A DNA stretch of 64,000 bases from an uncultured Gammaproteobacteria bacterium (GTDB lineage Bacteria > Patescibacteriota > Patescibacteriia > Magasanikbacterales > GWA2-37-8), in assembly GCA_964496095.1 (NCBI GenBank), contig CAZBWU010000002.1:15595-79594 (forward strand). The letters run 5' to 3'. This document shows, piece after piece, positions 15,334-49,112 of the stretch. The notes beneath the pieces were generated by a model. The model saw only the letters and a program-made list of their open reading frames with translations, was not told the origin of the DNA and searched no databases. A program made the translations under genes and the position numbers. The stretch's first letter is position 1, and each line of letters starts with the position of its first letter.

Positions 15334-16950
15334 ATGCTCAAAATTCTCAACAGCCAATTAAAATCAATCACCAGCGCCGCCATTATTATTTCTGGCGCGA
15401 CCTTGGTTAGTCGCGTTGTTGGATTAGCTCGGGATAGAATCTTTGCGCACTACTTCGGCGTGGGACCAGTGATGGATTCATATTACGCTGCTTTTAGAAT
15501 TCCGGATTTGATTTATAATCTGCTTATTGTCGGCGCGCTCAGCGCCGGTTTTATCCCTACTTTTACCAAACTATTTAATCAAAGCGAAGACAAAACTCCG
15601 GCCTGGAAATTGGCAAATAATATTTTAAATATCACCGCCATATCTCTGGCTATACTTAGTTTTTTTGGCATGTTATTTACTCCAGCTCTGACAAACCTTA
15701 TTGCTCCCGGATTTGATAACGCCTCCAAAGAACTAGTGACGAGTTTTACTAGAATCATGTTTGGCTCAACTGTTATGCTCGGACTATCTATGGTTATCGG
15801 TGGAGTCCTGCAATCTCTACGTGCTTTTTTCTTATATTCTCTAGCGCCAATTTTTTATAATCTTGGCATTATTGTCGGAGCCGTGGTACTGGTGCCACTG
15901 ATGGGCATAAGAGGCTTGGCTTGGGGTGTGGTCCTCGGTGCTTTTATGCACCTATCACTCCAAATATATAGCGCCTATGCCAATGGTTATAAATGGAAAT
16001 GGTACTTTAATCTCAAAGATCAAAACGCCAAAATAATCGGCAAGCTCATGGTACCACGCACTTTGGGACTAGCTATTAACCAACTCAATCTAGTTATCAT
16101 CACTATCCTTGCTTCTTGGCTTCCGACAGGCAGTGTAACAATTTTTAATTTTGCCAATAACTTGCAAGCTGTGCCTATCGGCATTATCGGCATACCATTT
16201 GCGATCGCAGTATTCCCCGTACTCTCGGCGGCCGCTGCCAAAAACGATATAGATGAATTTATCAAAAATCTATCATCAACAATCAGACAGATTTTATTTT
16301 TAATAATCCCCTGCGCTATTATTTTTCTACTTCTGCGAGCCCAAATCGTACGCGTGATATTAGGCACAGGCAAATTCAATTGGGATGCAACCATAAGCAC
16401 TGGCAACACTTTGGCTTTTTTTGCGCTGAGTATGTTTGCCCAGGCTCTTATCCCGCTAGTGGCTCGCGCTTTCTATGCGCTTGCCAATACCAAAACTCCT
16501 TTTATCATCGGCATCATCTCGGAGCTAACTAGTATTATTGCGGCTCTCTTGCTGATGAAACCGTTTGGCGTCGCTGGCTTGGCTTTGGCATTTTCTATTG
16601 GCTCTATTTTAAATTTAATTATTTTAAGTATATATCTAAGAAATACTCTCACAAAAATTAATGGCGACAAAATCTTTTCTTCTTTTTATAGAATAATTAT
16701 AGCAGCCATCCCAATGGCTCTACTAATACAATATATCAAAGATCCGCTAGCTAAAATTTTTAATCAAGACTATTTTTGGGGTATCCTAGGCCAAGGATTG
16801 GTAGCGGGGCTGGCTGGTCTAGCAATCTATCTTATACTGTGTTATCTTTTGAGGGTGCCAGAGCTACTTCAGATCAAAGAAAGCCTTACGAACCGGTTCC
16901 TACGACCAAAACAAGTCCAAACTCAAGAATCTATTGAAACAAACGCTTAA
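15334..16950 (+). CDS. murJ: Lipid II flippase MurJ (MviN)
   Basis: 538 aa, polytopic, with the conserved MurJ N-terminus (SRVVGLARDRIFAHYFGVGPVMDSYYAAFRIPD). Confidence 0.85.
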   Translation: MLKILNSQLKSITSAAIIISGATLVSRVVGLARDRIFAHYFGVGPVMDSYYAAFRIPDLIYNLLIVGALSAGFIPTFTKLFNQSEDKTPAWKLANNILNITAISLAILSFFGMLFTPALTNLIAPGFDNASKELVTSFTRIMFGSTVMLGLSMVIGGVLQSLRAFFLYSLAPIFYNLGIIVGAVVLVPLMGIRGLAWGVVLGAFMHLSLQIYSAYANGYKWKWYFNLKDQNAKIIGKLMVPRTLGLAINQLNLVIITILASWLPTGSVTIFNFANNLQAVPIGIIGIPFAIAVFPVLSAAAAKNDIDEFIKNLSSTIRQILFLIIPCAIIFLLLRAQIVRVILGTGKFNWDATISTGNTLAFFALSMFAQALIPLVARAFYALANTKTPFIIGIISELTSIIAALLLMKPFGVAGLALAFSIGSILNLIILSIYLRNTLTKINGDKIFSSFYRIIIAAIPMALLIQYIKDPLAKIFNQDYFWGILGQGLVAGLAGLAIYLILCYLLRVPELLQIKESLTNRFLRPKQVQTQESIETNA

Positions 16951-38231: not shown

Positions 38232-39047
38232 TTAGATTGATGGGGTAGTAGCTGGTGCTGGAGCCTTAACAGTTACTAATTTTGTTTTGATAACTGTATT
38301 AAGATTTGTATTAACAATACCGTCTACTCTTACTGTACTACCAACTTTTAAGTCGGCAAAAGCAATTGCAGTGTTGGCATTGTTAATTCTGGAAACAAAT
38401 TTTGTATCAGCGTCTGTTTTTACAGTCAAAGTTTTGTCGCCTTGTTTGAAGACAAAAGTCTTATTAACTGCATCTAGACTTACTACTTCGCCTTTCTTAC
38501 TAGAAATCATGTGGATAGAATTGTCTTTAACAGCGGTCACAGACAAAGATCCATCCTTGTTGAATTTAGCTACGATTCTTAATTCGTCACCAACACTCAT
38601 ATCAGACAATTTCATTTTTCCAAAGAATTCTCTGACAAATGTGGTTTTCTTGGTAAGGGTTAAAACAAGGTTGTTGCCTACCACTGGATAAACTACTGCT
38701 GGATCAACTATTTTAGAAGATTTTTTTGGTAACACACTTGTCACATTTACTGTAACTGTGGTGGAAGTTGTAGTAGAAGTGAATTCAGATACTGCGCTGG
38801 CTGTAACTAATTTTCCAACAAAAGTGAGGGTGCGAGGAGTAAATCTTAATGATTTTTCTAAGTCTTTTCTCTTTTGATCATCATTTCTGCGATCTTCCTG
38901 TCTATCCTCACGTCTATCTTCTTGTTTTTTTAACTCTGAAATTTCACGACCACGATTTTCTTGTTCACTATTTTGTGAAGCCAAGGCCGGAGCCACCGAC
39001 ATTAAAGCCATCACTGCGACTAAAGATCCTATTATATATTTTTTCAT
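38232..39047 (-). CDS. Secreted hypothetical protein with a charged RED-rich linker and a T/V-rich beta C-terminal domain
   Basis: Signal peptide (MKKYIIGSLVAVMALMSVAPALA), a QEDRREDRQEDRR linker and repeated T/V-rich strands. Sits downstream of the ECF sigma and anti-sigma-like pair. Confidence 0.5.
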   Translation of the reverse strand: MKKYIIGSLVAVMALMSVAPALASQNSEQENRGREISELKKQEDRREDRQEDRRNDDQKRKDLEKSLRFTPRTLTFVGKLVTASAVSEFTSTTTSTTVTVNVTSVLPKKSSKIVDPAVVYPVVGNNLVLTLTKKTTFVREFFGKMKLSDMSVGDELRIVAKFNKDGSLSVTAVKDNSIHMISSKKGEVVSLDAVNKTFVFKQGDKTLTVKTDADTKFVSRINNANTAIAFADLKVGSTVRVDGIVNTNLNTVIKTKLVTVKAPAPATTPSI

Positions 39048-39050
39048 ATA

Positions 39051-39130
39051 CGAAATGAGTGAGGAAATAAATTAAATGTTGTTAATTTATTCCGAGCGAA
39101 TGAGTATATATGGTTTACCTATATACAGAT
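39051..39130 (-). promoter_or_regulatory. Conserved leader/upstream element, copy 3 (more diverged)
   Basis: On the minus strand it reads ...ATATAGGTAAACCATATATACTCATTCGCTC ... hairpin ATTAA-caacat-TTAAT ... CACTCATTTCG-TAT-ATG. Confidence 0.45.
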
Positions 39131-39235
39131 TATAATTAAATTTAATTAAATACTTTTACTCAGACTGTTTATCGACCTCTCCTCCTCCATCCCGACTCAG
39201 TCGGAACCAGAGAGTTAAACAGTTAAAACTTATTT

Positions 39236-40015
39236 TTAATCCCCATCATGTCCGTCTCCTTTTTCCAGACGAGAATCGTTTCGCAAACCAGATCTATCCC
39301 CTCTTTTTTCAATCTTTTTATCTTCTAACTCTTGCAATTTTTCAGCTCTATTTTTTATAATCTCAGAGGCTTTATCTAATCTTTCTCTTCTTTTTTCTAA
39401 TCTTTGTTCGATTTTAGCCTTAACTTCTTCTTGAAATTTATTATCTTTTATTTCCACTTGATCTAGATTTTCCTTAAATTTTTCTAATCTATCTTCGGCT
39501 TCTTGGATTGATTTGTCTATGTTTTCTATTCTGGCATCAATTTTTCTATCCTTTTTAATAAACGCTTTTTTGGATTCTAAATTTGTTGCTTCTGTCGAGG
39601 TGGCGTCCTCTTGTTCTGACTCAACGCTTTGATCTTCAACTTCATTTTTCTTTATAATTGCCCTTTCAGCTTCTCGACGCTCAATTTTCTTTAGGAGAAA
39701 CTTTGCTTTCGCTTCAGGAGTTATCTTGGTAATTTCTTCTACATTCTCTATCACTTTTTTTACTGGATATAGGATATTACCTTCGGTTACATCTGGACTG
39801 TTGTAGGCATAGGCACCGCCACTTCCTACCAGAACTAGAACTACTACTGCCATCGCTCCGGCTCTGTACATAATACTAGAATGAATCCAGCTTACTTTTC
39901 CATATTTTGCATCCCAAGCTTTATTCAAATCTTTTTGTAAGCTAGCTTTAAAAACAGTACTTGGAGATAAACTTCTTTTTATTTTAAATAAATTGTACCT
40001 TGTTTTTAATGACAT
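39236..40015 (-). CDS. Membrane-anchored coiled-coil protein, putative anti-sigma factor (DUF5667-like context)
   Basis: 259 aa with a single TM helix (AMAVVVLVLVGSGG), a charged coiled-coil ectodomain, and a start 5 nt after the ECF sigma stop. Confidence 0.4.
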   Translation of the reverse strand: MSLKTRYNLFKIKRSLSPSTVFKASLQKDLNKAWDAKYGKVSWIHSSIMYRAGAMAVVVLVLVGSGGAYAYNSPDVTEGNILYPVKKVIENVEEITKITPEAKAKFLLKKIERREAERAIIKKNEVEDQSVESEQEDATSTEATNLESKKAFIKKDRKIDARIENIDKSIQEAEDRLEKFKENLDQVEIKDNKFQEEVKAKIEQRLEKRRERLDKASEIIKNRAEKLQELEDKKIEKRGDRSGLRNDSRLEKGDGHDGD

Positions 40016-40019
40016 ATGA

Positions 40020-40544
40020 TTATGATTTGGTAGATAGCTTCTTAATAGCTCTGTGAGCTGCGACCTTAACGGCCGTCTCTGTCGTTTGCTTCATCTCTGC
40101 TATCTCTGCATAACTATACCCGAGCAGGTAGTGAAAGGTTACAATTTCCCGATCATCATCGGCTAAACCGGCCAACAAATCCTCTAATTCTCGCTTTTTT
40201 TCTTCATTTTTAAACGATTTAATGGCTGATTTTAGCCAAAAACTATCATCAGACTCTTCCTCGTCCTCAGGCAAATGGTTGGTCGGCTTTTGATCCCGCC
40301 AATGGTTAGCTAGGTGATTTTTGGTAATAGTCATTATCCAGGCAGATTTGCTTAATTCTTCGTTATAACTGCCAAAATGCTCCAGGGCTTTCATAAATAC
40401 CTCTGAAACTAGGTCCTGAGCCAGGTCTTTATTTGCACCAACACGAAAAAAGACAAAGCGATACACTTTGTCTATGTGAGTATTATAAAACTTCTCAAAT
40501 TCTTTTTTTGTATTCTGGCTTTTCATGGTAAAAGTATACACCAA
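40020..40544 (-). CDS. RNA polymerase sigma-70 factor, ECF subfamily
   Basis: Region 2 (YRFVFFRVGANKDLAQDLVSEVFMKALEH) and region 4 HTH (REIVTFHYLLGYSYAEIAEMKQTTETAVKVAAHRAIKKL); 174 aa. Confidence 0.8.
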   Translation of the reverse strand: MVYTFTMKSQNTKKEFEKFYNTHIDKVYRFVFFRVGANKDLAQDLVSEVFMKALEHFGSYNEELSKSAWIMTITKNHLANHWRDQKPTNHLPEDEEESDDSFWLKSAIKSFKNEEKKRELEDLLAGLADDDREIVTFHYLLGYSYAEIAEMKQTTETAVKVAAHRAIKKLSTKS

Positions 40545-40574: not shown

Positions 40575-40750
40575 TGTCATTCTGAATCCCCTCAAGGGGA
40601 TAAACCCCATAAAGAATCCCTGTCTAAACAATGTCATTCCCGCAAAAAGCGGGAATCCAGACAATTCAATTGAACGCTGGATCCCCGATCAAGTCGGGGA
40701 TGACAACGAACAAACCGGACAGAGATCCTTCGCTGTCACTCAGGATGACA
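40575..40750. repeat. Tandem cluster of three or more MITE/REP-like palindromic units (E7) between the dnaJ stop and the ECF sigma start
   Basis: tgtcattctgaatcccctcaaggggataaacccc..., then tgtcattcccgcaaaaagcgggaatccagacaa, then ...gatccccgatcaagtcggggatgacaacgaacaaaccggacagagatccttcgctgtcactcaggatgaca. Confidence 0.7.
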
Positions 40751-40772
40751 GTTGCGCAACAATTAAAACAAA

Positions 40773-41873
40773 TTAAAGCTCGCTCTTCAAATCTTCTAAC
40801 TTCTTTCGGACATCTCTGCTAATTTTTTTCGGCACTTTGATTTTTATCTTTACATAATGATCACCACGAACATTTCTATCCAAGTGCTGAATACCTTTAC
40901 CTCTCAGTCTAATCAATTGGCCTGACTCCACCCCTTCCGGTACCAATAATTTTTCTACACCATCCAAAGTTTCAACCTCAACTTTATCTCCCAAAACTGC
41001 CTGAGGAAAACTAACTTCTTTTTCAGTATAAACGTCATAACCCTCACGACCAAAATCTTTGTATGATTTTACGCGCACGCGCACATAGAGACTACCATTA
41101 CCACCACCGTGCGGAGCGGCTTCACCATGACCATCAAGTCGGATAGATTGGCCATTATCAATTCCAGCTGGAATTTTGACTTTAATGGTTGAATTGCTTT
41201 GCACCACGCCTGAGCCACCACAATGTTTACATTTCTTAGAAGGTTTTTTGCCCGTGCCATGACAATCACTACAAACAACCGCAGTTTGCATATTACCCAA
41301 GAAAGTTCGTTGCATCTGTGTCACCTGGCCTTGGCCATGACAAGTACCGCAAGTTTCCATTTTACTGTCCGGTTCTCCCCCACTACCTTTACAAATATCA
41401 CATTTATTTTGCTTGCGTAAAGAAATTTCTTTTTCCACACCAAAAGCAGCTTCCTTAAAATCTATCTCCACATCTACCTGAATATCTTGGCCTCTAGCCT
41501 GGCCTCGGCCACGACTGCGTCCTCCGCCAAAAAAGTCTCCAAAAATATCTCCGAGGTCGCCAAAATCACCGCCAGAAAAACCGCCCTGAGTGCCACCTTG
41601 CCCTCGGAAAGAATTCATCACATCTTCCCAGTTCATACCACCGCTAAATCCACCTTGTTGCTCAAAATCAGAACCAAACTGATCATAGCGTTGGCGCTTT
41701 TCTTTATCACTCAACACTTGATAAGCTTCGTTTATCTCTTTGAACTTTGCTTCATTGCCACCCGGTCTATCGGGATGGTGTTGCATGGCAGCTTTTTTAA
41801 AAGCCTTTTTTATATCGTCAGTGGAAGCGTTTTTTTCCACGCCAAGAATTTTGTAATAATCTTTTTGGGACAT
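40773..41873 (-). CDS. dnaJ: Molecular chaperone DnaJ
   Basis: J domain with HPD (YYKILGV...HHPDR), a G/F-rich region, four CxxCxGxG zinc-finger repeats and a 366-aa length. Confidence 0.9.
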   Translation of the reverse strand: MSQKDYYKILGVEKNASTDDIKKAFKKAAMQHHPDRPGGNEAKFKEINEAYQVLSDKEKRQRYDQFGSDFEQQGGFSGGMNWEDVMNSFRGQGGTQGGFSGGDFGDLGDIFGDFFGGGRSRGRGQARGQDIQVDVEIDFKEAAFGVEKEISLRKQNKCDICKGSGGEPDSKMETCGTCHGQGQVTQMQRTFLGNMQTAVVCSDCHGTGKKPSKKCKHCGGSGVVQSNSTIKVKIPAGIDNGQSIRLDGHGEAAPHGGGNGSLYVRVRVKSYKDFGREGYDVYTEKEVSFPQAVLGDKVEVETLDGVEKLLVPEGVESGQLIRLRGKGIQHLDRNVRGDHYVKIKIKVPKKISRDVRKKLEDLKSEL

Positions 41874-41880
41874 AAATTAA

Positions 41881-42360
41881 TTAAACAAAAAGTACTTTTT
41901 TTGCTCGTATTATAAATTCTTTAATTGATCTTAAGTCATCTTCACTGGGGCCATCGTCACCAGAACCTTCATGGGCGTCTTCATCAAGAAAAAGAAAGGA
42001 TAAATTACTTGATAAAACAAGACGATTTTTCAGCCAAGCTAAAAATTCTTTCCTATTTCCATTATCCAACACATCCTTTTTTAAAAGATTTGACTCAATT
42101 TCTTTTTTTAGTAATGATAATTGCTTTAAGTTATCTTTTAAAGATTCTGAGACTTGAACATCCTTAACCGTTTTTAGGTCTTTTAACACCGAATCTACTT
42201 TTATAAATATTTGTTTAAAAACAACCCAAACTACCATCTCGCCTACTCTTAGATCTTCTACATTTTGTACGCCAAGCCTAAGCGACTCATTTATTTCTGC
42301 CAATTTTTTTATTTCATCTCGAAAAGCCTCTAGCTCTCCTGGTTCTTCTACGTCTAACAT
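41881..42360 (-). CDS. Hypothetical protein with an acidic C-terminus, between dnaK and dnaJ
   Basis: 159-aa ORF with no recognisable domain. Tightly packed (7-nt gap to dnaJ). Confidence 0.4.
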   Translation of the reverse strand: MLDVEEPGELEAFRDEIKKLAEINESLRLGVQNVEDLRVGEMVVWVVFKQIFIKVDSVLKDLKTVKDVQVSESLKDNLKQLSLLKKEIESNLLKKDVLDNGNRKEFLAWLKNRLVLSSNLSFLFLDEDAHEGSGDDGPSEDDLRSIKEFIIRAKKVLFV

Positions 42361-42398
42361 AAATAATTATTGATATTTTTGTATACTAATCTAGAAAT

Positions 42399-43127
42399 TT
42401 ATATTTTGTCACGATTATCAACAACAAGAAAATCACTAAATTTATTAAATCTATTACCTTGATTTCGATTGACGTCAAAATTATAAATTGCATTAACCCC
42501 AGATTCTAATAACTTCTCTGAAGACAGCATGGATAAATCAACTTCTTCAGCTGCACCTAAATGCACTTGGATATCACTCAAACGTGCCATAGATTTAATT
42601 AAATTAATTGAGTACATTGGGTCACGAACAACCTTTGACTGCCAATCAGGCCCACCTAGGAATTGGGAACTGACTACTACGTCAAATTTCTTAGATGGAG
42701 TGGGAATTGCTTGTATTTCAGAAGGTAAAATATCCATATTATCAAACTCTTCATAGTTTGTTGACAAAGCAATAGGGTCGACTAAAACAACCTTTTCAGC
42801 TCCTAGCCCAGCGATAATTCTAGATTGTGTAGCTGTAAAAGTTCTATACCTATCAGGTGTAATGTCCCCATCTGCAACAACTATAATCCGCTTACCTTTA
42901 AAACCTTCTACGCCACCAAACATCTCTACTAGATAACCTAAAGTAAAGGCTTCGTTGCCAACAAGCCAATTATTTCTCTGTTGATCAGAAAAATTTTTCT
43001 TAATATACCTGGCGATTCTCAAACCTTTATAAGACAAATCTTTCAAATCGCTTTCGGTTAGTATGTTTGGGAAATGAAAATCAGGCAAATTTTCAACATC
43101 TGGCCGTGGAGTATGCACCTCACGCAT
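42399..43127 (-). CDS. Hypothetical protein with a Rossmann-like core, between dnaK and dnaJ
   Basis: 242 aa containing GKRIIVVADGDITPDRY...AGLGAEKVVLVDP (alternating beta-alpha pattern). Family not identified. Confidence 0.4.
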   Translation of the reverse strand: MREVHTPRPDVENLPDFHFPNILTESDLKDLSYKGLRIARYIKKNFSDQQRNNWLVGNEAFTLGYLVEMFGGVEGFKGKRIIVVADGDITPDRYRTFTATQSRIIAGLGAEKVVLVDPIALSTNYEEFDNMDILPSEIQAIPTPSKKFDVVVSSQFLGGPDWQSKVVRDPMYSINLIKSMARLSDIQVHLGAAEEVDLSMLSSEKLLESGVNAIYNFDVNRNQGNRFNKFSDFLVVDNRDKI

Positions 43128-43187
43128 AAGATTAACTAAATAAATTTATTCCAAAATTTGGAACTAATTTCTTATTATTAGAAAAGT

Positions 43188-45137
<1,950 letters not shown>

Positions 45138-45177
45138 TTATTAATTATTAAATTTTAACAAAGTTAATAGATATTTA

Positions 45178-46047
45178 TTATTCCGGTTTAAATAAATATT
45201 CACTAATTAGCTTATCATAATTATTCGGATCAGGACGCCATCCTTTATAATACTCAACGTGCAATGGATAGAGGAGCGATTCTTTAATAAAATTTCCTCT
45301 AACTAAATCTTCTAAAAATTTACCCTGAGAAAGAAATTCTTCTATTGTTTTAAATTCTTGATCCTGCCCTTTCTTTAGCTCGTCATACACACGCTTATGC
45401 TCTTGCCTAAATTGCCACGCACTATCAATAGCAGAGATAATATCTTTTTCTTGATCTGGTCCTAGGTCTATCACAGGATCCTTCATCTCATCTTCAATCT
45501 CAATATAATCGCCAAACTCTGGGTCATTCTTAATATAAGGCCTTCCAGAAACAGTTCCCATTATTTTACAATTATCTGATAAATCAAAGCTATACCCGAA
45601 TATAGGCAGAATTTGCTTATCTCTATCAGGTGCATCATTTTTAACCGATAAAGTACAAAATCCGCCAGAACACTGAACATCGATAGTTGGATATTTAGCT
45701 TTAATCAAATCGGCTATACGACCAGCGCTTTCGTAGGCTTCAAAAGGATCTATTTCATCTTCCATGCCAACTTCTATATCATCATGTTCTATAACATCCC
45801 TTTGGGGCGGCATACTGTCAGTTATAAACCTATCTTTGGCAGTCTTAATTTTTTCTGCCGAAACTGACGTTGGTTCTGCTGGTCCTTTTTTTAATTCATA
45901 CATAATTGCCCCGCCTTCCCCCAACACCCCCGCAATTCCGGCTGCTAATAACCATTTTTTAAATCTTTGTGATCTGCCTAAACTGAGCTTTTGCATTGCT
46001 CCGTTTTCGGCTCCTTTCAAGGATTGACTATAAACAGGTTCACGCAT
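45178..46047 (-). CDS. Hypothetical membrane-anchored protein, between grpE and dnaK
   Basis: ORF in the track runs 45178..46122. The likely start MREPVYSQ is at 46047, abutting the upstream gene's stop. One TM helix (WLLAAGIAGVLGEGGAIM). No known domain. Confidence 0.4.
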   Translation of the reverse strand: MREPVYSQSLKGAENGAMQKLSLGRSQRFKKWLLAAGIAGVLGEGGAIMYELKKGPAEPTSVSAEKIKTAKDRFITDSMPPQRDVIEHDDIEVGMEDEIDPFEAYESAGRIADLIKAKYPTIDVQCSGGFCTLSVKNDAPDRDKQILPIFGYSFDLSDNCKIMGTVSGRPYIKNDPEFGDYIEIEDEMKDPVIDLGPDQEKDIISAIDSAWQFRQEHKRVYDELKKGQDQEFKTIEEFLSQGKFLEDLVRGNFIKESLLYPLHVEYYKGWRPDPNNYDKLISEYLFKPE

Positions 46048-46051
46048 ATAT

Positions 46052-46609
46052 TTAAAAAGTCTTAGCATGCTTTTTACTATAAAGATAAGAATAAATCTTT
46101 TCTTGATTATTATGCGGATCATCTAATATGCCGCTTTTATATAATTCTCTTAAGGAATCTAGGGCAACATCATCAGCTATTTCTTCATTTACTACATCTG
46201 CAAGATTTTCATGTTTTTCTAAGCATCTCTCAATCTTAATAATCTGTTCTAAAACACTAACGATCGTTTTATAATTATCTTCTGCAGATTGCAAATTACT
46301 TTTACATATACCTAATTTATTAATCAGCTCTTGGTCTTCAGCAGACATGCTTCCTTTAAAAAAAGGCCCTTCATTGTTATCTAAAAATTCATAGATCCTT
46401 CTTGATAAGAATCTCAAAATATTTCTAACCTTACTAACCTTGTCACTAAAATTAGCATCCTTTTCTAAATCATTAAATGATTTCACTCCATTTTCACCAA
46501 CTTGACCCAACTGATCTGCAACTGCTAATTTAAAATCTATAATTTCAAAACTAATAGGTTTATGATTAACTTTTATTTCTGGGAAAATACCACCTTCTTC
46601 TCTTCTCAT
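46052..46609 (-). CDS. Hypothetical protein, between grpE and dnaK
   Basis: 185-aa ORF, predicted helical. No known domain. Confidence 0.4.
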   Translation of the reverse strand: MRREEGGIFPEIKVNHKPISFEIIDFKLAVADQLGQVGENGVKSFNDLEKDANFSDKVSKVRNILRFLSRRIYEFLDNNEGPFFKGSMSAEDQELINKLGICKSNLQSAEDNYKTIVSVLEQIIKIERCLEKHENLADVVNEEIADDVALDSLRELYKSGILDDPHNNQEKIYSYLYSKKHAKTF

Positions 46610-46652
46610 AAAATTTATTTACAAATAATAACTCGCGCTGGTTTAATAATTT

Positions 46653-47645
46653 TCAAGCAAAATTCAAAGCACTTTGAATTTTTTCTTTACAGCCATAAGG
46701 GTCTTTTCTTCCTTCATTATATAAATTAAGTAGCGAATGAAGAGTGTCCTTATCTAACGAAAGGTCCTTAGTCACAACACTCCAATCACTATCTCTTCCT
46801 AGACTAATCAACTTATCTTCTAGTTCAAAAAGTGGCTCAAAAAAGTCCGCTTCAAATGATGCCTTTTCTAGCTTAACTACAAAATCCCTTTCTACATCGA
46901 CATCTTTACACATTTCAATTATCTTATTTATCGTCTTTTTTATCTTGTCAAACCTGATTTCTCCTTTCTTTACCAGATCGGTCACTTGCTGAATGCTAAC
47001 ATCTTGAAAAATAAATCTGATTTTTTCTATAATATAATGAAATAAAGGAGAGTCCTGATTTGCTGGCAAATCGATATATAAAGAAAACTCAGATTTTCGA
47101 AGTTGATTTAACTCAATCAAAGCATCAGCAACTTTAATAAATACCACGTCATTAAACTTTCTGTCTCTAACATATCCCTCAAATAACCTTAGAAGGTTAT
47201 TTGGATGAATCTTTGGATCACCCTGAACTATGGTGCAGGCACCCACTAAATCATCTACAGTTATTCTACTGTTGCGTGCATATTCATCTATCATATGCAT
47301 CACCCTTTGGTAATCAGGATGATTGGTATTAAAACTCCATATTGGTTTTCGAATGTTAAATTCTTGTTCTACAACTGCTTCTCCTTTACTACTTTCTATC
47401 CCTGCGGTATCATCCGAAATATTCAAGCCTTCATCTTCATCAGTCGATCTTCTACTACTATAATCTCCTTCTATAACTAATTCTTCTGCGCCTGCATCTT
47501 TTCCACCACTATTACCTAACCATTCGTCTTCCTTAGGTGTTTCCTTTCTTGGAGGGGTGTTATGCAAAACAACCACATCATCATCTGCGTCAATAACTTC
47601 TGTATTAAAAACTTCAGTTCCTGTTGTTACCCTTTCTGTAATCAT
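46653..47645 (-). CDS. Hypothetical protein with an acidic disordered N-terminus, between grpE and dnaK
   Basis: 330-aa ORF with no known domain. Confidence 0.4.
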   Translation of the reverse strand: MITERVTTGTEVFNTEVIDADDDVVVLHNTPPRKETPKEDEWLGNSGGKDAGAEELVIEGDYSSRRSTDEDEGLNISDDTAGIESSKGEAVVEQEFNIRKPIWSFNTNHPDYQRVMHMIDEYARNSRITVDDLVGACTIVQGDPKIHPNNLLRLFEGYVRDRKFNDVVFIKVADALIELNQLRKSEFSLYIDLPANQDSPLFHYIIEKIRFIFQDVSIQQVTDLVKKGEIRFDKIKKTINKIIEMCKDVDVERDFVVKLEKASFEADFFEPLFELEDKLISLGRDSDWSVVTKDLSLDKDTLHSLLNLYNEGRKDPYGCKEKIQSALNFA

Positions 47646-47720
47646 AGATAAATTACTTACTTATAATAAGAAAAGCTTGAAATTTTGTCGGGCTTCCAAA
47701 TAAGAAAAATATTTTCTTAT

Positions 47721-48248
47721 TTACTCACCCCTAGAAATTATAACCCGTGCTGGTCTAATAACCTTGTCTCCACGTTTATACCCACCTTCTATTTCTTTCA
47801 AAATCAATCCTGACTCTCCTTCGGCGGATTCTTCCTCGCCTACCGCTTCATGCCAGCGTGGATCAAACTTTTCTCCGACTGTTTTTATTTCTTCTACTTG
47901 ATAGGTTTTTAAAATATCGCCAAATTGTTTTTTGATATGGCCGATACCTTCGGCCCATTGTTTCCAACCATTTTCTTCATTTAGATTTTCTCTGTGACTA
48001 AAGGCTTTTTTGAAATTCTCATAGACTGGCACAAATTCTTCCAAAATATATTGCTCGCTGGCTTTGGCCCACACACTACGCATATCAGCTGATTCTTTTT
48101 GCAAATTTTTATAATCAGCCAAAGCTCTCTGCCAACCCGATTTATATTCTTCGGCTTCAGCTTTGCACTTATCACAATTCTCACAAGTTTGCGTTTTTGC
48201 AACTTCTTGCTCTTGAACTTCGTCTTGTATGTTTTGTTCGTCTAACAT
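47721..48248 (-). CDS. grpE: Nucleotide exchange factor GrpE
   Basis: 175 aa with a coiled-coil N-terminus and the GrpE C-terminal beta domain (GYKRGDKVIRPARV). Confidence 0.85.
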   Translation of the reverse strand: MLDEQNIQDEVQEQEVAKTQTCENCDKCKAEAEEYKSGWQRALADYKNLQKESADMRSVWAKASEQYILEEFVPVYENFKKAFSHRENLNEENGWKQWAEGIGHIKKQFGDILKTYQVEEIKTVGEKFDPRWHEAVGEEESAEGESGLILKEIEGGYKRGDKVIRPARVIISRGE

Positions 48249-48257
48249 AATAATATC

Positions 48258-48938
48258 TTAAATAATTTCAAGTAACTTTTTAATCAAACCAAAATTATAT
48301 TTATAATCCATTCTCTTTGGACCCAAAAGAGTAATCATGCCTTCTTTGCCAAACCGAGCCGAGACCACACTTAGCATCTCATCAAACGGATTTTCGCTAC
48401 CGATAAAATATCTTGGCGAATCTTCTACTTTATCAAAAAAATCTTCCAGATAATCCTCGCAATGGTCAAACATTTGCGAAATAGCAGAGACTGTTTTTAA
48501 ATTTTCAAACTCTGTTTTATTAAATAAATTGGATAAGCCAGTATAATAAACTCTCTCCGGAGAAAAAGCAATAATTACAGTTTCGTTAGAAAGTTCGGTA
48601 GCGGCCTTGGCAATATTCTTGCGTGAAAGTTCGTAATCCTGGTCTTCCTCAAAAGAATCGAGCAAAATCTTAGAATCATTTTTTGAAATATGACTTTTTT
48701 CCAAATTAATACGGCTCACGTAATGACGATAACCTTGCTCAGTTGGAATTCTACCAGCGGAAGTGTGGGGATGAGTGAGATACCCACCTTCTTCTAGAGC
48801 ACGCAACTCATTGCGTACTGTAGCCTCACTAAAATCTAAATCACCAAAAGAAACCAAAAATTTTGAACCGATTGGTTCGGCATTTTTGATATAACTTTCA
48901 ATGACTAAGGTTAGTAATTCTTCTTGGCGAGGATCCAT
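48258..48938 (-). CDS. hrcA: Heat-inducible transcription repressor HrcA
   Basis: Winged-helix N-terminus (MDPRQEELLTLVIESYIKNAEPIGSKFL) and an HrcA C-domain. The track ORF extends to a GTG at 49049, but that stretch overlaps the promoter, CIRCE and the conserved leader, so an ATG near 48938 is preferred. Exact base coordinates here are uncertain by about 1 nt. Confidence 0.8.
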   Translation of the reverse strand: MDPRQEELLTLVIESYIKNAEPIGSKFLVSFGDLDFSEATVRNELRALEEGGYLTHPHTSAGRIPTEQGYRHYVSRINLEKSHISKNDSKILLDSFEEDQDYELSRKNIAKAATELSNETVIIAFSPERVYYTGLSNLFNKTEFENLKTVSAISQMFDHCEDYLEDFFDKVEDSPRYFIGSENPFDEMLSVVSARFGKEGMITLLGPKRMDYKYNFGLIKKLLEII

Positions 48939-49027
48939 ATTCGAAATGAGTGAAAAAATATTGAGCTTGCTCAAATATTTTTGAACGAATGAGAATATAT
49001 GGGCTTTAGCCCATATAACGAAATGGG
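48939..49027 (-). promoter_or_regulatory. Conserved leader/upstream element, copy 2, in the hrcA 5' UTR
   Basis: On the minus strand it reads ...TTATATGGGCT-AA-AGCCCATATATTCTCATTCGTTC ... TTGAGC-aa-GCTCAA ... CACTCATTTCG-AAT-ATG. Confidence 0.5.
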
Positions 49028-49042
49028 GTGAATAATAACAAA

Positions 49043-49069
49043 TTATCACTCAACGCTTGTGAGTGATAA
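49043..49069. promoter_or_regulatory. CIRCE operator (HrcA binding site) TTATCACTC-N9-GAGTGATAA
   Basis: Matches the CIRCE consensus TTAGCACTC-N9-GAGTGCTAA at 8/9 positions in each half, symmetrically. Overlaps the -10/TSS of the promoter upstream of hrcA. Confidence 0.7.
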
Positions 49070-49096
49070 TATAACACCGGTTTAAAGAAGTGTCAA
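49068..49096 (-). promoter_or_regulatory. Sigma70-type promoter TTGACA-17-TATATT driving the hrcA operon
   Basis: On the minus strand, TTGACA (plus-strand 49091-49096), a 17-nt spacer and TATATT (plus-strand 49068-49073). Confidence 0.55.
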
Positions 49097-49112
49097 GAGC
49101 TATTTTTAGCTA

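Follow-up and report, generated by a model that had tools for sequence, protein, structure and literature searches.

Five uncharacterised genes in two variable positions of the CIRCE-controlled dnaK operon of an uncultured member of the Patescibacteria: candidate partners of the chaperone system

The 64-kb stretch of contig CAZBWU010000002.1 analysed here, called the window below at its full length, carries a dnaK operon on its minus strand in the order promoter, variant of the controlling inverted repeat of chaperone expression (CIRCE), hrcA-grpE-(U1-U2-U3)-dnaK-(U4-U5)-dnaJ and hairpin cluster, where U1 to U5 denote five uncharacterised inserts. The interval between grpE and dnaK was named slot 1 and that between dnaK and dnaJ slot 2. 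Comparison with related loci showed that these two slots of a CIRCE-controlled dnaK operon are variable and recombination-prone, and that each insert family keeps its own position and order. The joint explanation that we consider best, and to which we would give about an even chance of being correct, is that the five open reading frames (ORFs) are real, lineage-specific accessory genes in these slots and candidate partners of the chaperones. A role of the inserts as co-chaperones, adaptors or clients, proposed in a preliminary description made from the letters of this DNA, is an unproven candidate, and the inserts, which are swapped or lost between close relatives, could as well be unrelated passengers. 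The gene order hrcA-grpE-dnaK-dnaJ with five inserts on one strand, also given there, was confirmed, and all nine ORFs were found on the minus strand with unchanged coordinates, among the following features.

49068..49096, minus strand: promoter of sigma-70 type, TTGACA-17-TATATT with TG before the -10 element, 11/12 consensus matches, directly upstream of CIRCE
49043..49069, minus strand: CIRCE operator variant TTATCACTC-N9-GAGTGATAA, predicted HrcA binding site, abutting the -10 element
48258..48938, minus strand: hrcA, 226 amino acids from the ATG at 48938 (PF01628, E 1e-15; TIGR00331, E 4e-48)
47721..48248, minus strand: grpE, 175 amino acids (PF01025, E 4e-38)
47697..47723, minus strand: 12-bp all-A/U hairpin at the grpE stop codon (RNA fold z -3.1)
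46653..47645, minus strand: U1, 330 amino acids, no family match, carrying a shared C-terminal module
46052..46609, minus strand: U2, 185 amino acids, distant paralogue of U1 with the same C-terminal module
45178..46047, minus strand: U3, 289 amino acids, with a weakly hydrophobic N-terminal segment and a probable C-terminal module
43188..45122, minus strand: dnaK, 644 amino acids (TIGR02350, E 5e-289)
42399..43127, minus strand: U4, 242 amino acids, fold of class I S-adenosylmethionine (SAM) methyltransferases according to AlphaFold2 (AF2) and Foldseek
41881..42360, minus strand: U5, 159 amino acids, helical bundle (AF2), family of at least 105 clusters, stopping 7 nt before dnaJ
40773..41873, minus strand: dnaJ, 366 amino acids (TIGR02349, E 5e-124)
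40625..40772, minus strand: operon end, G+C-rich hairpin cluster with dispersed repeats (terminator scan; RNA fold z -5.6)

Related loci were collected by searches anchored on DnaK, which gave 80 loci from genomes and 80 from metagenomes, i.e. 160 in all; the closest named ones belong to Candidatus Magasanikbacteria (Patescibacteria / candidate phyla radiation, CPR), to which the genome of the window is also assigned. An interrupted dnaK operon is the rule in the related Patescibacteria loci. The spacing ranges from 4 to 4601 nt between grpE and dnaK and from -6 to 5315 nt between dnaK and dnaJ. If a slot of at least 250 nt is counted as occupied, 107 of 136 assessable loci have a filled slot 1 and 85 of 117 a filled slot 2. 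The usual occupant of slot 1 is hsp20 (82 loci) and a frequent occupant of slot 2 is DUF3467 (28 loci); neither Hsp20 nor DUF3467 was detected by hmmsearch of the whole window. The flanking synteny (gdh, yidC, band-7, operon, sigma factor and onward) is conserved in relatives.

Within the slots, U1-like genes lie directly after grpE in 7/7 cases, 4-73 nt away, U4-like genes directly after dnaK in 7/7 assessable cases, and U5-like genes directly before dnaJ wherever both flanks are visible. The distance from the U5-like gene to dnaJ is typically 3-12 nt and lies between 3 and 66 nt except in locus L011, where it reaches 421 nt and a further ORF of 83 amino acids is found in between. Synteny, to which the preliminary description had pointed as a check, is kept in part only: the families hold their positions, but the inserts are not fixed, the slots being empty or filled with unrelated alleles in close relatives.

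Whole genes are replaced, added or lost between near-identical backbones, whose DnaK and DnaJ show 97-100% identity, and the breakpoints fall at gene boundaries. Loci L004 and L088, for instance, are identical at 99% of the amino acids of GrpE, 98% of those of DnaK and 100% of those of DnaJ, whereas their U1-like genes are only 28% identical, and just one of these loci has a second U5-like gene. The window and L095 show 90.5% nucleotide identity up to the stop codon of dnaK and again from 7 nt before the start of dnaJ, with no detectable similarity across the 1.3 kb between dnaK and dnaJ. The synonymous divergence (dS) of this pair is 0.38-0.68 in the flanks and 1.9-2.6 in the cassette genes, indicating that the common ancestor of the cassettes is older than that of the flanks. 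L095 is a mosaic, in which window-like flanks surround a frameshifted U4 allele resembling that of L020 and a third U5 allele. The opposite relation was seen in one pair, where the dS of the cassette is below that of the flanks (0.64-0.70 against 1.7-2.7), which suggests recent horizontal exchange. In the explanation proposed here, the conserved chaperone genes would act as homology arms for this exchange of cassettes.

The ratio of nonsynonymous to synonymous divergence (dN/dS) in orthologous pairs is 0.137 for a U1-like gene, 0.139 and 0.24 for two U5-like genes and 0.025-0.075 for the chaperones. By this measure, the inserts are real genes under purifying selection. The earlier assumption that they are conserved and coding was thus borne out, with homologues in place in relatives and dN/dS of 0.14-0.24.

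The AF2 model of U5 is a confident all-helical bundle (pLDDT 87.7, pTM 0.82) for which no significant fold match was found, the best E value being 1.2 in the PDB and 0.46 among the viral models of BFVD. What had been described as an acidic tail of U5 was modelled, with low confidence, as an internal loop ahead of a C-terminal helix, and it is missing from most relatives. Word-indexed homologue searches gave families of 3-9 members for the inserts, including 9 relatives for U5, which is an underestimate in the case of U5, as an exhaustive profile search yielded at least 105 clusters at 50% identity, nearly all of them 125-170 amino acids long. The residues F13, W45, F106, W109 and N112 are invariant in this family. 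Nine family members were also looked up without the DnaK anchor, and six of them (P0008, P0050, P0090, P0066, P0075 and P0100) are situated in the dnaK-dnaJ slot; the strict slot specificity of U5 that the DnaK-anchored loci had suggested was softened by these look-ups. One of the six, P0066, encoded between dnaK and dnaJ, is a natural fusion in which an intact U4-type domain (E 6e-49) is joined to a U5 domain (E 3e-24). Other architectures include U5-U5 tandems and U5 with a CxxC tail. The fixed order of the two genes and their fusion into one polypeptide in a relative suggest that U4 and U5 act together.

Small proteins encoded beside a J-protein gene have precedents. The gene dafA is located in the dnaK operon next to dnaJ, and E. 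coli CbpM, encoded next to cbpA, is a small protein that modulates CbpA by direct binding. In Thermus thermophilus, DafA is the assembly factor for DnaK and DnaJ, with which it forms a complex of 3:3:3 stoichiometry (PMC3727329). In Chlamydia, hagF is repressed by HrcA, and its small product HagF modulates HrcA by direct binding (PMC12154930). U5 resembles DafA in being small, lineage-restricted, devoid of a recognisable domain and encoded beside dnaJ; binding to DnaJ/DnaK is a property of DafA that would have to be extended to U5. The two have no detectable sequence or fold relationship, and U5 is about twice the size of DafA and belongs to a hyperdiverse family whose members are sometimes fused to enzyme domains. 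Similarly, the CbpM/CbpA and HagF/HrcA pairs share with the inserts the co-expression, predicted in the case of the inserts, of a small protein with a heat-shock component, but not homology. On the strength of the tight coupling to dnaJ and of the DafA and HagF precedents, U5 may be a modulator of DnaJ/DnaK or an adaptor working with them, comparable to DafA of Thermus or CbpM of E. coli.

U4 was modelled as a seven-stranded, Rossmann-like alpha/beta fold (pLDDT 70, pTM 0.78), and the 50 best Foldseek matches in the PDB, with E values from 2e-6, belong without exception to the class I SAM-dependent methyltransferases. The Rossmann-like core noted for this protein in the preliminary description can therefore be specified as a class I methyltransferase fold, whereas the statement that no insert bears a recognisable signature holds for J-domain and GrpE matches but not for U4. 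Its motif I reads VVADGD and fails the D/E-x-G-x-G-x-G glycine loop, the corresponding sequences in relatives being EVAGGD, DIGGGH and DVGGGS, while the acidic residue after strand 2 (motif II; VDP) is retained, D117-P118 being invariant across the family. Among curated methyltransferase models, the best match of U4 was Methyltransf_11 with an E value of 0.13, which is below the cut-off, and its relatives matched none. U4 thus has in common with class I SAM-methyltransferases the seven-stranded fold and the acidic residue after strand 2, and its relatives keep a D-x-G-G-G motif I; it differs from them by the replacement of the glycine loop by VVADGD and by the lack of any Pfam model at threshold. 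These features point to a methyltransferase-derived protein with a degenerate cofactor site in this genome, and the U4 of the window has probably lost normal SAM binding. METTL21A, a class I SAM-dependent Hsp70 lysine methyltransferase, is absent from the top fold matches.

Two further observations concern U4. In the closest relative of the window, the U4-like gene (L095:1200-1960) is split over two reading frames by frameshifts, which reflect either a pseudogene or assembly errors. In addition, an identical copy of U4 is present on the 967-bp contig JACCDM011403927.1 of GCA_013565575.1 (L003), an NCBI assembly with contig numbers beyond 11 million, and also in two Logan assemblies, indicating that DNA of this organism occurs in unrelated sequencing projects.

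None of the five inserts reached threshold in searches of Pfam and NCBIfam, and the same was true for the relatives of each family. U1 consists of an acidic, probably disordered N-terminal part of about 100 amino acids, followed by helical repeats that end in a helical C-terminal module of about 55 amino acids. This module is shared with U2 and probably with U3. A search seeded with the last 62 residues of U1 recovered slot-1 ORFs only: besides U2 and U3, these were the full set of U1-like proteins, one of which also matched through an internal repeat, and two small ORFs of relatives that comprise a single module. As the E values of iterated jackhmmer searches are inflated by targets that enter the model, leave-one-out hidden Markov models were used instead; against 7178 ORFs, these gave E values of 9.5e-6 for U2 and 0.004 for U3, and no other match below E 10. 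The membership of U2 is thus solid, and that of U3 probable.

Beyond the module, no homologue of U2 was found in the related loci or in IMG/VR contigs. U3 has a single homologue among the related loci, in the same slot of L010. A transmembrane helix, reported for one insert in the preliminary description, is doubtful: the hydrophobic segment of U3 reaches a 19-residue Kyte-Doolittle maximum of only 1.37, and it is not conserved in the only homologue (1.03). No match of U1-U5 to the J-domain (PF00226) or GrpE (PF01025) models was detected. Profile comparison with hhalign led us to reject the possibilities that the slot-1 module is a hidden J-domain (probability of 0.1% against 99 J-domains) or GrpE-like (2%) and that the inserts are diverged Hsp20 or DUF3467 proteins (at most 0.5%), and the 'xDP' of the module was discarded as a degenerate HPD since the motif is not conserved across the family. 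The module was found to be unrelated to U5 by profile comparison, and no significant match among PDB sequences was obtained for profiles of the module, of U5 or of U1, or for the sequence of U3 by itself. The slot-1 proteins might function as adaptors combining a common docking module with variable N-terminal parts.

The signals of the operon bear on the expression of the inserts. The intergenic spacers from hrcA to dnaJ measure 9, 75, 43, 4, 55, 60, 38 and 7 nt; the gaps had rightly been called short, although their range is 4-75 nt rather than 2-60 nt. As previously proposed, the operon is preceded by one strong promoter with CIRCE directly downstream. The operator is a perfect inverted repeat and the sole CIRCE-like site in the window, with 0 expected by chance. 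Compared with the consensus TTAGCACTC-N9-GAGTGCTAA, it contains two symmetrical mismatches, one compensating change per arm (G to T in one, C to A in the other), so that the palindrome is kept. Some form of CIRCE is present upstream of hrcA in 130 of 133 related loci, and the symmetrical variant of the window in 32; its recurrence suggests a lineage-wide co-evolution of operator and HrcA. Three related loci have a second CIRCE upstream of dnaJ. Neither a second CIRCE nor groESL was found in the window, and a 538-aa ORF at 15334 is MurJ-like. The most likely start of hrcA is the ATG at 48938, from which relatives align, and not a GTG overlapping CIRCE.

A terminator-like stem lies at 40636-40656, within the hairpin cluster 3' of dnaJ, and no convincing intrinsic terminator was found inside the operon by terminator scan and RNA folding. 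None of the nine operon genes (40773-48938) is preceded by a Shine-Dalgarno sequence, and their leaders contain 76-92% A+T, which suggests Shine-Dalgarno-independent initiation in this organism. As the leaders of all nine genes are alike, the inserts share their initiation context with the chaperone genes. Given the short spacers, the single strong promoter and the lack of a G+C-rich internal terminator, it is plausible that the inserts are co-transcribed with the chaperones from the CIRCE promoter and hence heat-inducible.

The main rival explanation, which we regard as a real possibility although the less likely one, is that the inserts are passengers. The two spacers of a conserved, highly expressed operon would then be permissive landing sites for genes with functions unrelated to Hsp70, held and spread by homologous recombination through the dnaK, dnaJ and grpE flanks. 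The other occupants found elsewhere in Patescibacteria fit this well, since unrelated genes are among them: QueF, a Vut_1/YhhQ-like transporter, GNAT, a DUF559 endonuclease and a trypsin-like protease in slot 1, and DUF4230, an alpha/beta hydrolase and a DUF559 endonuclease in slot 2. Several other points favour passengers or otherwise weigh against the explanation that we prefer. Both slots are empty in the close relatives L007, L008, L098 and L099, whose DnaK is 87-88% identical, and the inserts must therefore be dispensable for the core chaperone system. Some members of the U5 family are encoded outside the operon, P0045 as a stand-alone gene and P0073 as a U5 domain fused to a Maf-like one, next to a GIY-YIG gene (L094:3-350), and the contig of P0030 is too short to place it in the slot; the DnaK-anchored loci are by their nature unable to reveal family members elsewhere in the same genomes. 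The frameshifted U4-like gene of L095 also counts here, as does the G+C content at third codon positions (GC3), which is lower in the inserts (0.19-0.28) than in the chaperone genes (0.29-0.33). Position specificity could result from vertical descent and recombination through conserved flanks alone, and the U4-U5 fusion could be a tolerated read-through of adjacent genes with no joint function. Finally, the membership of U3 in the slot-1 module is marginal at E 0.004, and the hairpin after grpE together with a weak promoter-like site (9/12) leaves room for a partial uncoupling of U1-U3.

On the other side, the commonest occupant of slot 1, Hsp20, is itself a chaperone, so that the content of the slot is not random. 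The very tight U5-dnaJ spacing, the existence of the U4-U5 fusion, the sharing by three adjacent slot-1 genes of a module found nowhere else among 7178 ORFs and the purifying selection on the inserts are likewise not what passengers would lead one to expect.

It is unlikely that the inserts form separate transcription units, with a terminator after grpE and own promoters for U1-U3 and possibly for U5-dnaJ. The candidates for such signals are the 12-bp hairpin at the grpE stop codon, followed at 47691-47663 by the promoter-like site CCGACA-17-TATTAT with 9/12 matches, and a 10/12 promoter-like site inside U4 at 42767-42738. The hairpin, however, is free of G-C pairs and was passed over by the terminator scan, the remaining spacers showed no stronger folding than shuffled sequence, and the promoter-like sites of the window (39) are barely above the 28.7 +/- 5.3 of shuffled sequence. 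Moreover, relatives have U1-like genes starting 4-13 nt after grpE and U5-like genes ending 3-12 nt before dnaJ. The hairpin could possibly represent a weak attenuator or an RNA-stability element. Of the independent promoters and terminators that the preliminary description named as the opposing case, there is thus no convincing internal terminator, but the all-A/U hairpin and the weak promoter-like site after grpE are present.

Very doubtful is the view that the inserts are conflict-driven, hypervariable genes involved in interaction with phages or host cells, subject to balancing or diversifying selection and using the heat-shock promoter for expression only. It could account for deeply divergent alleles on near-identical backbones, for the at least 105 clusters at 50% identity of the U5 family within one narrow lineage, for the pair in which cassette dS is lower than flank dS and for endonuclease genes (DUF559, GIY-YIG) in or near some slots. 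Against it, no match was obtained with PADLOC defence models at E values up to 1 or with PHROG below E 0.05, no relatives of U1-U5 were detected in IMG/VR contigs, U5 has no fold match among viral proteins, and the dN/dS values of orthologous pairs are well below 1. That the ORFs are chance reading frames or decaying pseudogenes is hardly credible and effectively refuted for U1, U4 and U5, as the absence of family matches and the few homologues in word-indexed searches are outweighed by lengths of 159-330 amino acids in a 35% G+C genome, homologues at the same positions in relatives, dN/dS of 0.14-0.24, confident AF2 models for U5 and U4 and the U5 family of at least 105 clusters.

The explanation of the inserts as accessory genes and candidate chaperone partners can be carried further, to a recombination-driven system of exchangeable Hsp70 cofactors, which appears improbable at present. 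In such a system, the slot-1 module would dock on DnaK/GrpE, with the variable N-terminal parts of the slot-1 proteins selecting clients or locations, and U4-U5 would modify or gate DnaJ/DnaK. Selection would maintain the diversity of alleles, exerted for example by phages or host cells that exploit the chaperone.

The locus resembles two kinds of known systems. In B. subtilis, the HrcA/CIRCE-regulated operon is hrcA-grpE-dnaK-dnaJ-prmA-rsmE-yqeV. Gram-positive operons of this type share with the window the core order, the CIRCE at the promoter and the presence of extra non-chaperone genes, including methyltransferases. Their extra genes are located after dnaJ and co-transcribed, whereas those of the window are placed among the chaperone genes, come from undescribed families and vary from one near-identical genome to another. 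Variable cassettes between conserved core genes are found in O-antigen and capsule loci and as intergenic, free-standing homing-endonuclease cargo in T-even phages. The likeness to these loci consists in divergent alleles between conserved flanks, breakpoints at gene boundaries and occasional endonuclease genes in the slots; here, however, the flanks are Hsp70 chaperone genes, the cassettes comprise one to three small genes and the window has no endonuclease.

Some occupants of the slots in other loci deserve mention. DUF3467 (e.g. L032:12519-12809), a family of unknown function, is almost never found elsewhere in the Patescibacteria loci that carry it between dnaK and dnaJ; it may be a partner of the DnaK system that has so far been overlooked, and a single paper in the literature searched mentions it. 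In 18 loci (e.g. L035:9621-9962, slot 1), hsp20 is followed by a member of a family of small proteins of 106-131 amino acids that contain two CxxC pairs and match no Pfam model. Genes for DUF559 (Vsr-like) endonucleases are present inside slot 1 or 2 in 7 loci (L006:8923-9312, L018:4923-5306 and others), and such free-standing endonucleases could drive the exchange of cassettes.

The leader of about 85 nt between CIRCE and the hrcA start (48933-49017) contains a GGGC/GCCC hairpin. This leader is found again, with 87-88% identity, at L006:17901-17986 and L007:1626-1692 directly before the ATG of unrelated genes, and it is missing from the hrcA leaders of L006 and L007 themselves. It may be a portable leader or promoter module. 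An intergenic repeat, TGTCATCCYGAGYG, is dispersed in 9 copies over the window (at 701, 2671, 13644, 15154, 19525, 31986, 40737, 54453 and 58396), against 0.07 expected, one copy belonging to the hairpin cluster 3' of dnaJ; a companion motif, ...GAATGACA..., is present in 17 copies, where 3 would be expected. Downstream of dnaJ (38232-40544), a gene for a sigma factor of the extracytoplasmic function type (40020-40544), a probable anti-sigma gene and a DUF5666-like gene were identified, and this arrangement is kept in relatives.

The gene content of dnaK-dnaJ operons differs between species (PMC12077118). This variability, as well as the existence of lineage-specific partners such as DafA, is already known, whereas the families, the fixed positions that they take and the exchange of their alleles among near-identical genomes seem to be new. 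The literature searched contained no account of these slots or families for Patescibacteria.

Few machines in biology are as conserved as the Hsp70 system, and its bacterial partners (J-proteins, GrpE, ClpB and Hsp20) have been regarded as largely catalogued; most lineage-specific genes of Patescibacteria have, as far as we know, no assigned function. In this large group of uncultured bacteria, extra genes are routinely found in the dnaK operon, at two positions that stay the same. Should any of the inserts bind DnaK or DnaJ, they would provide new cofactors and a handle on the proteostasis of Patescibacteria. Should none of them do so, the locus would still be a clear case from nature in which conserved essential genes provide the homology arms for the exchange of cassettes. 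If the inserts were indeed exchangeable Hsp70 cofactors, they would represent a new class of bacterial Hsp70 partners and the operon the first core chaperone system with a hypervariable accessory layer.

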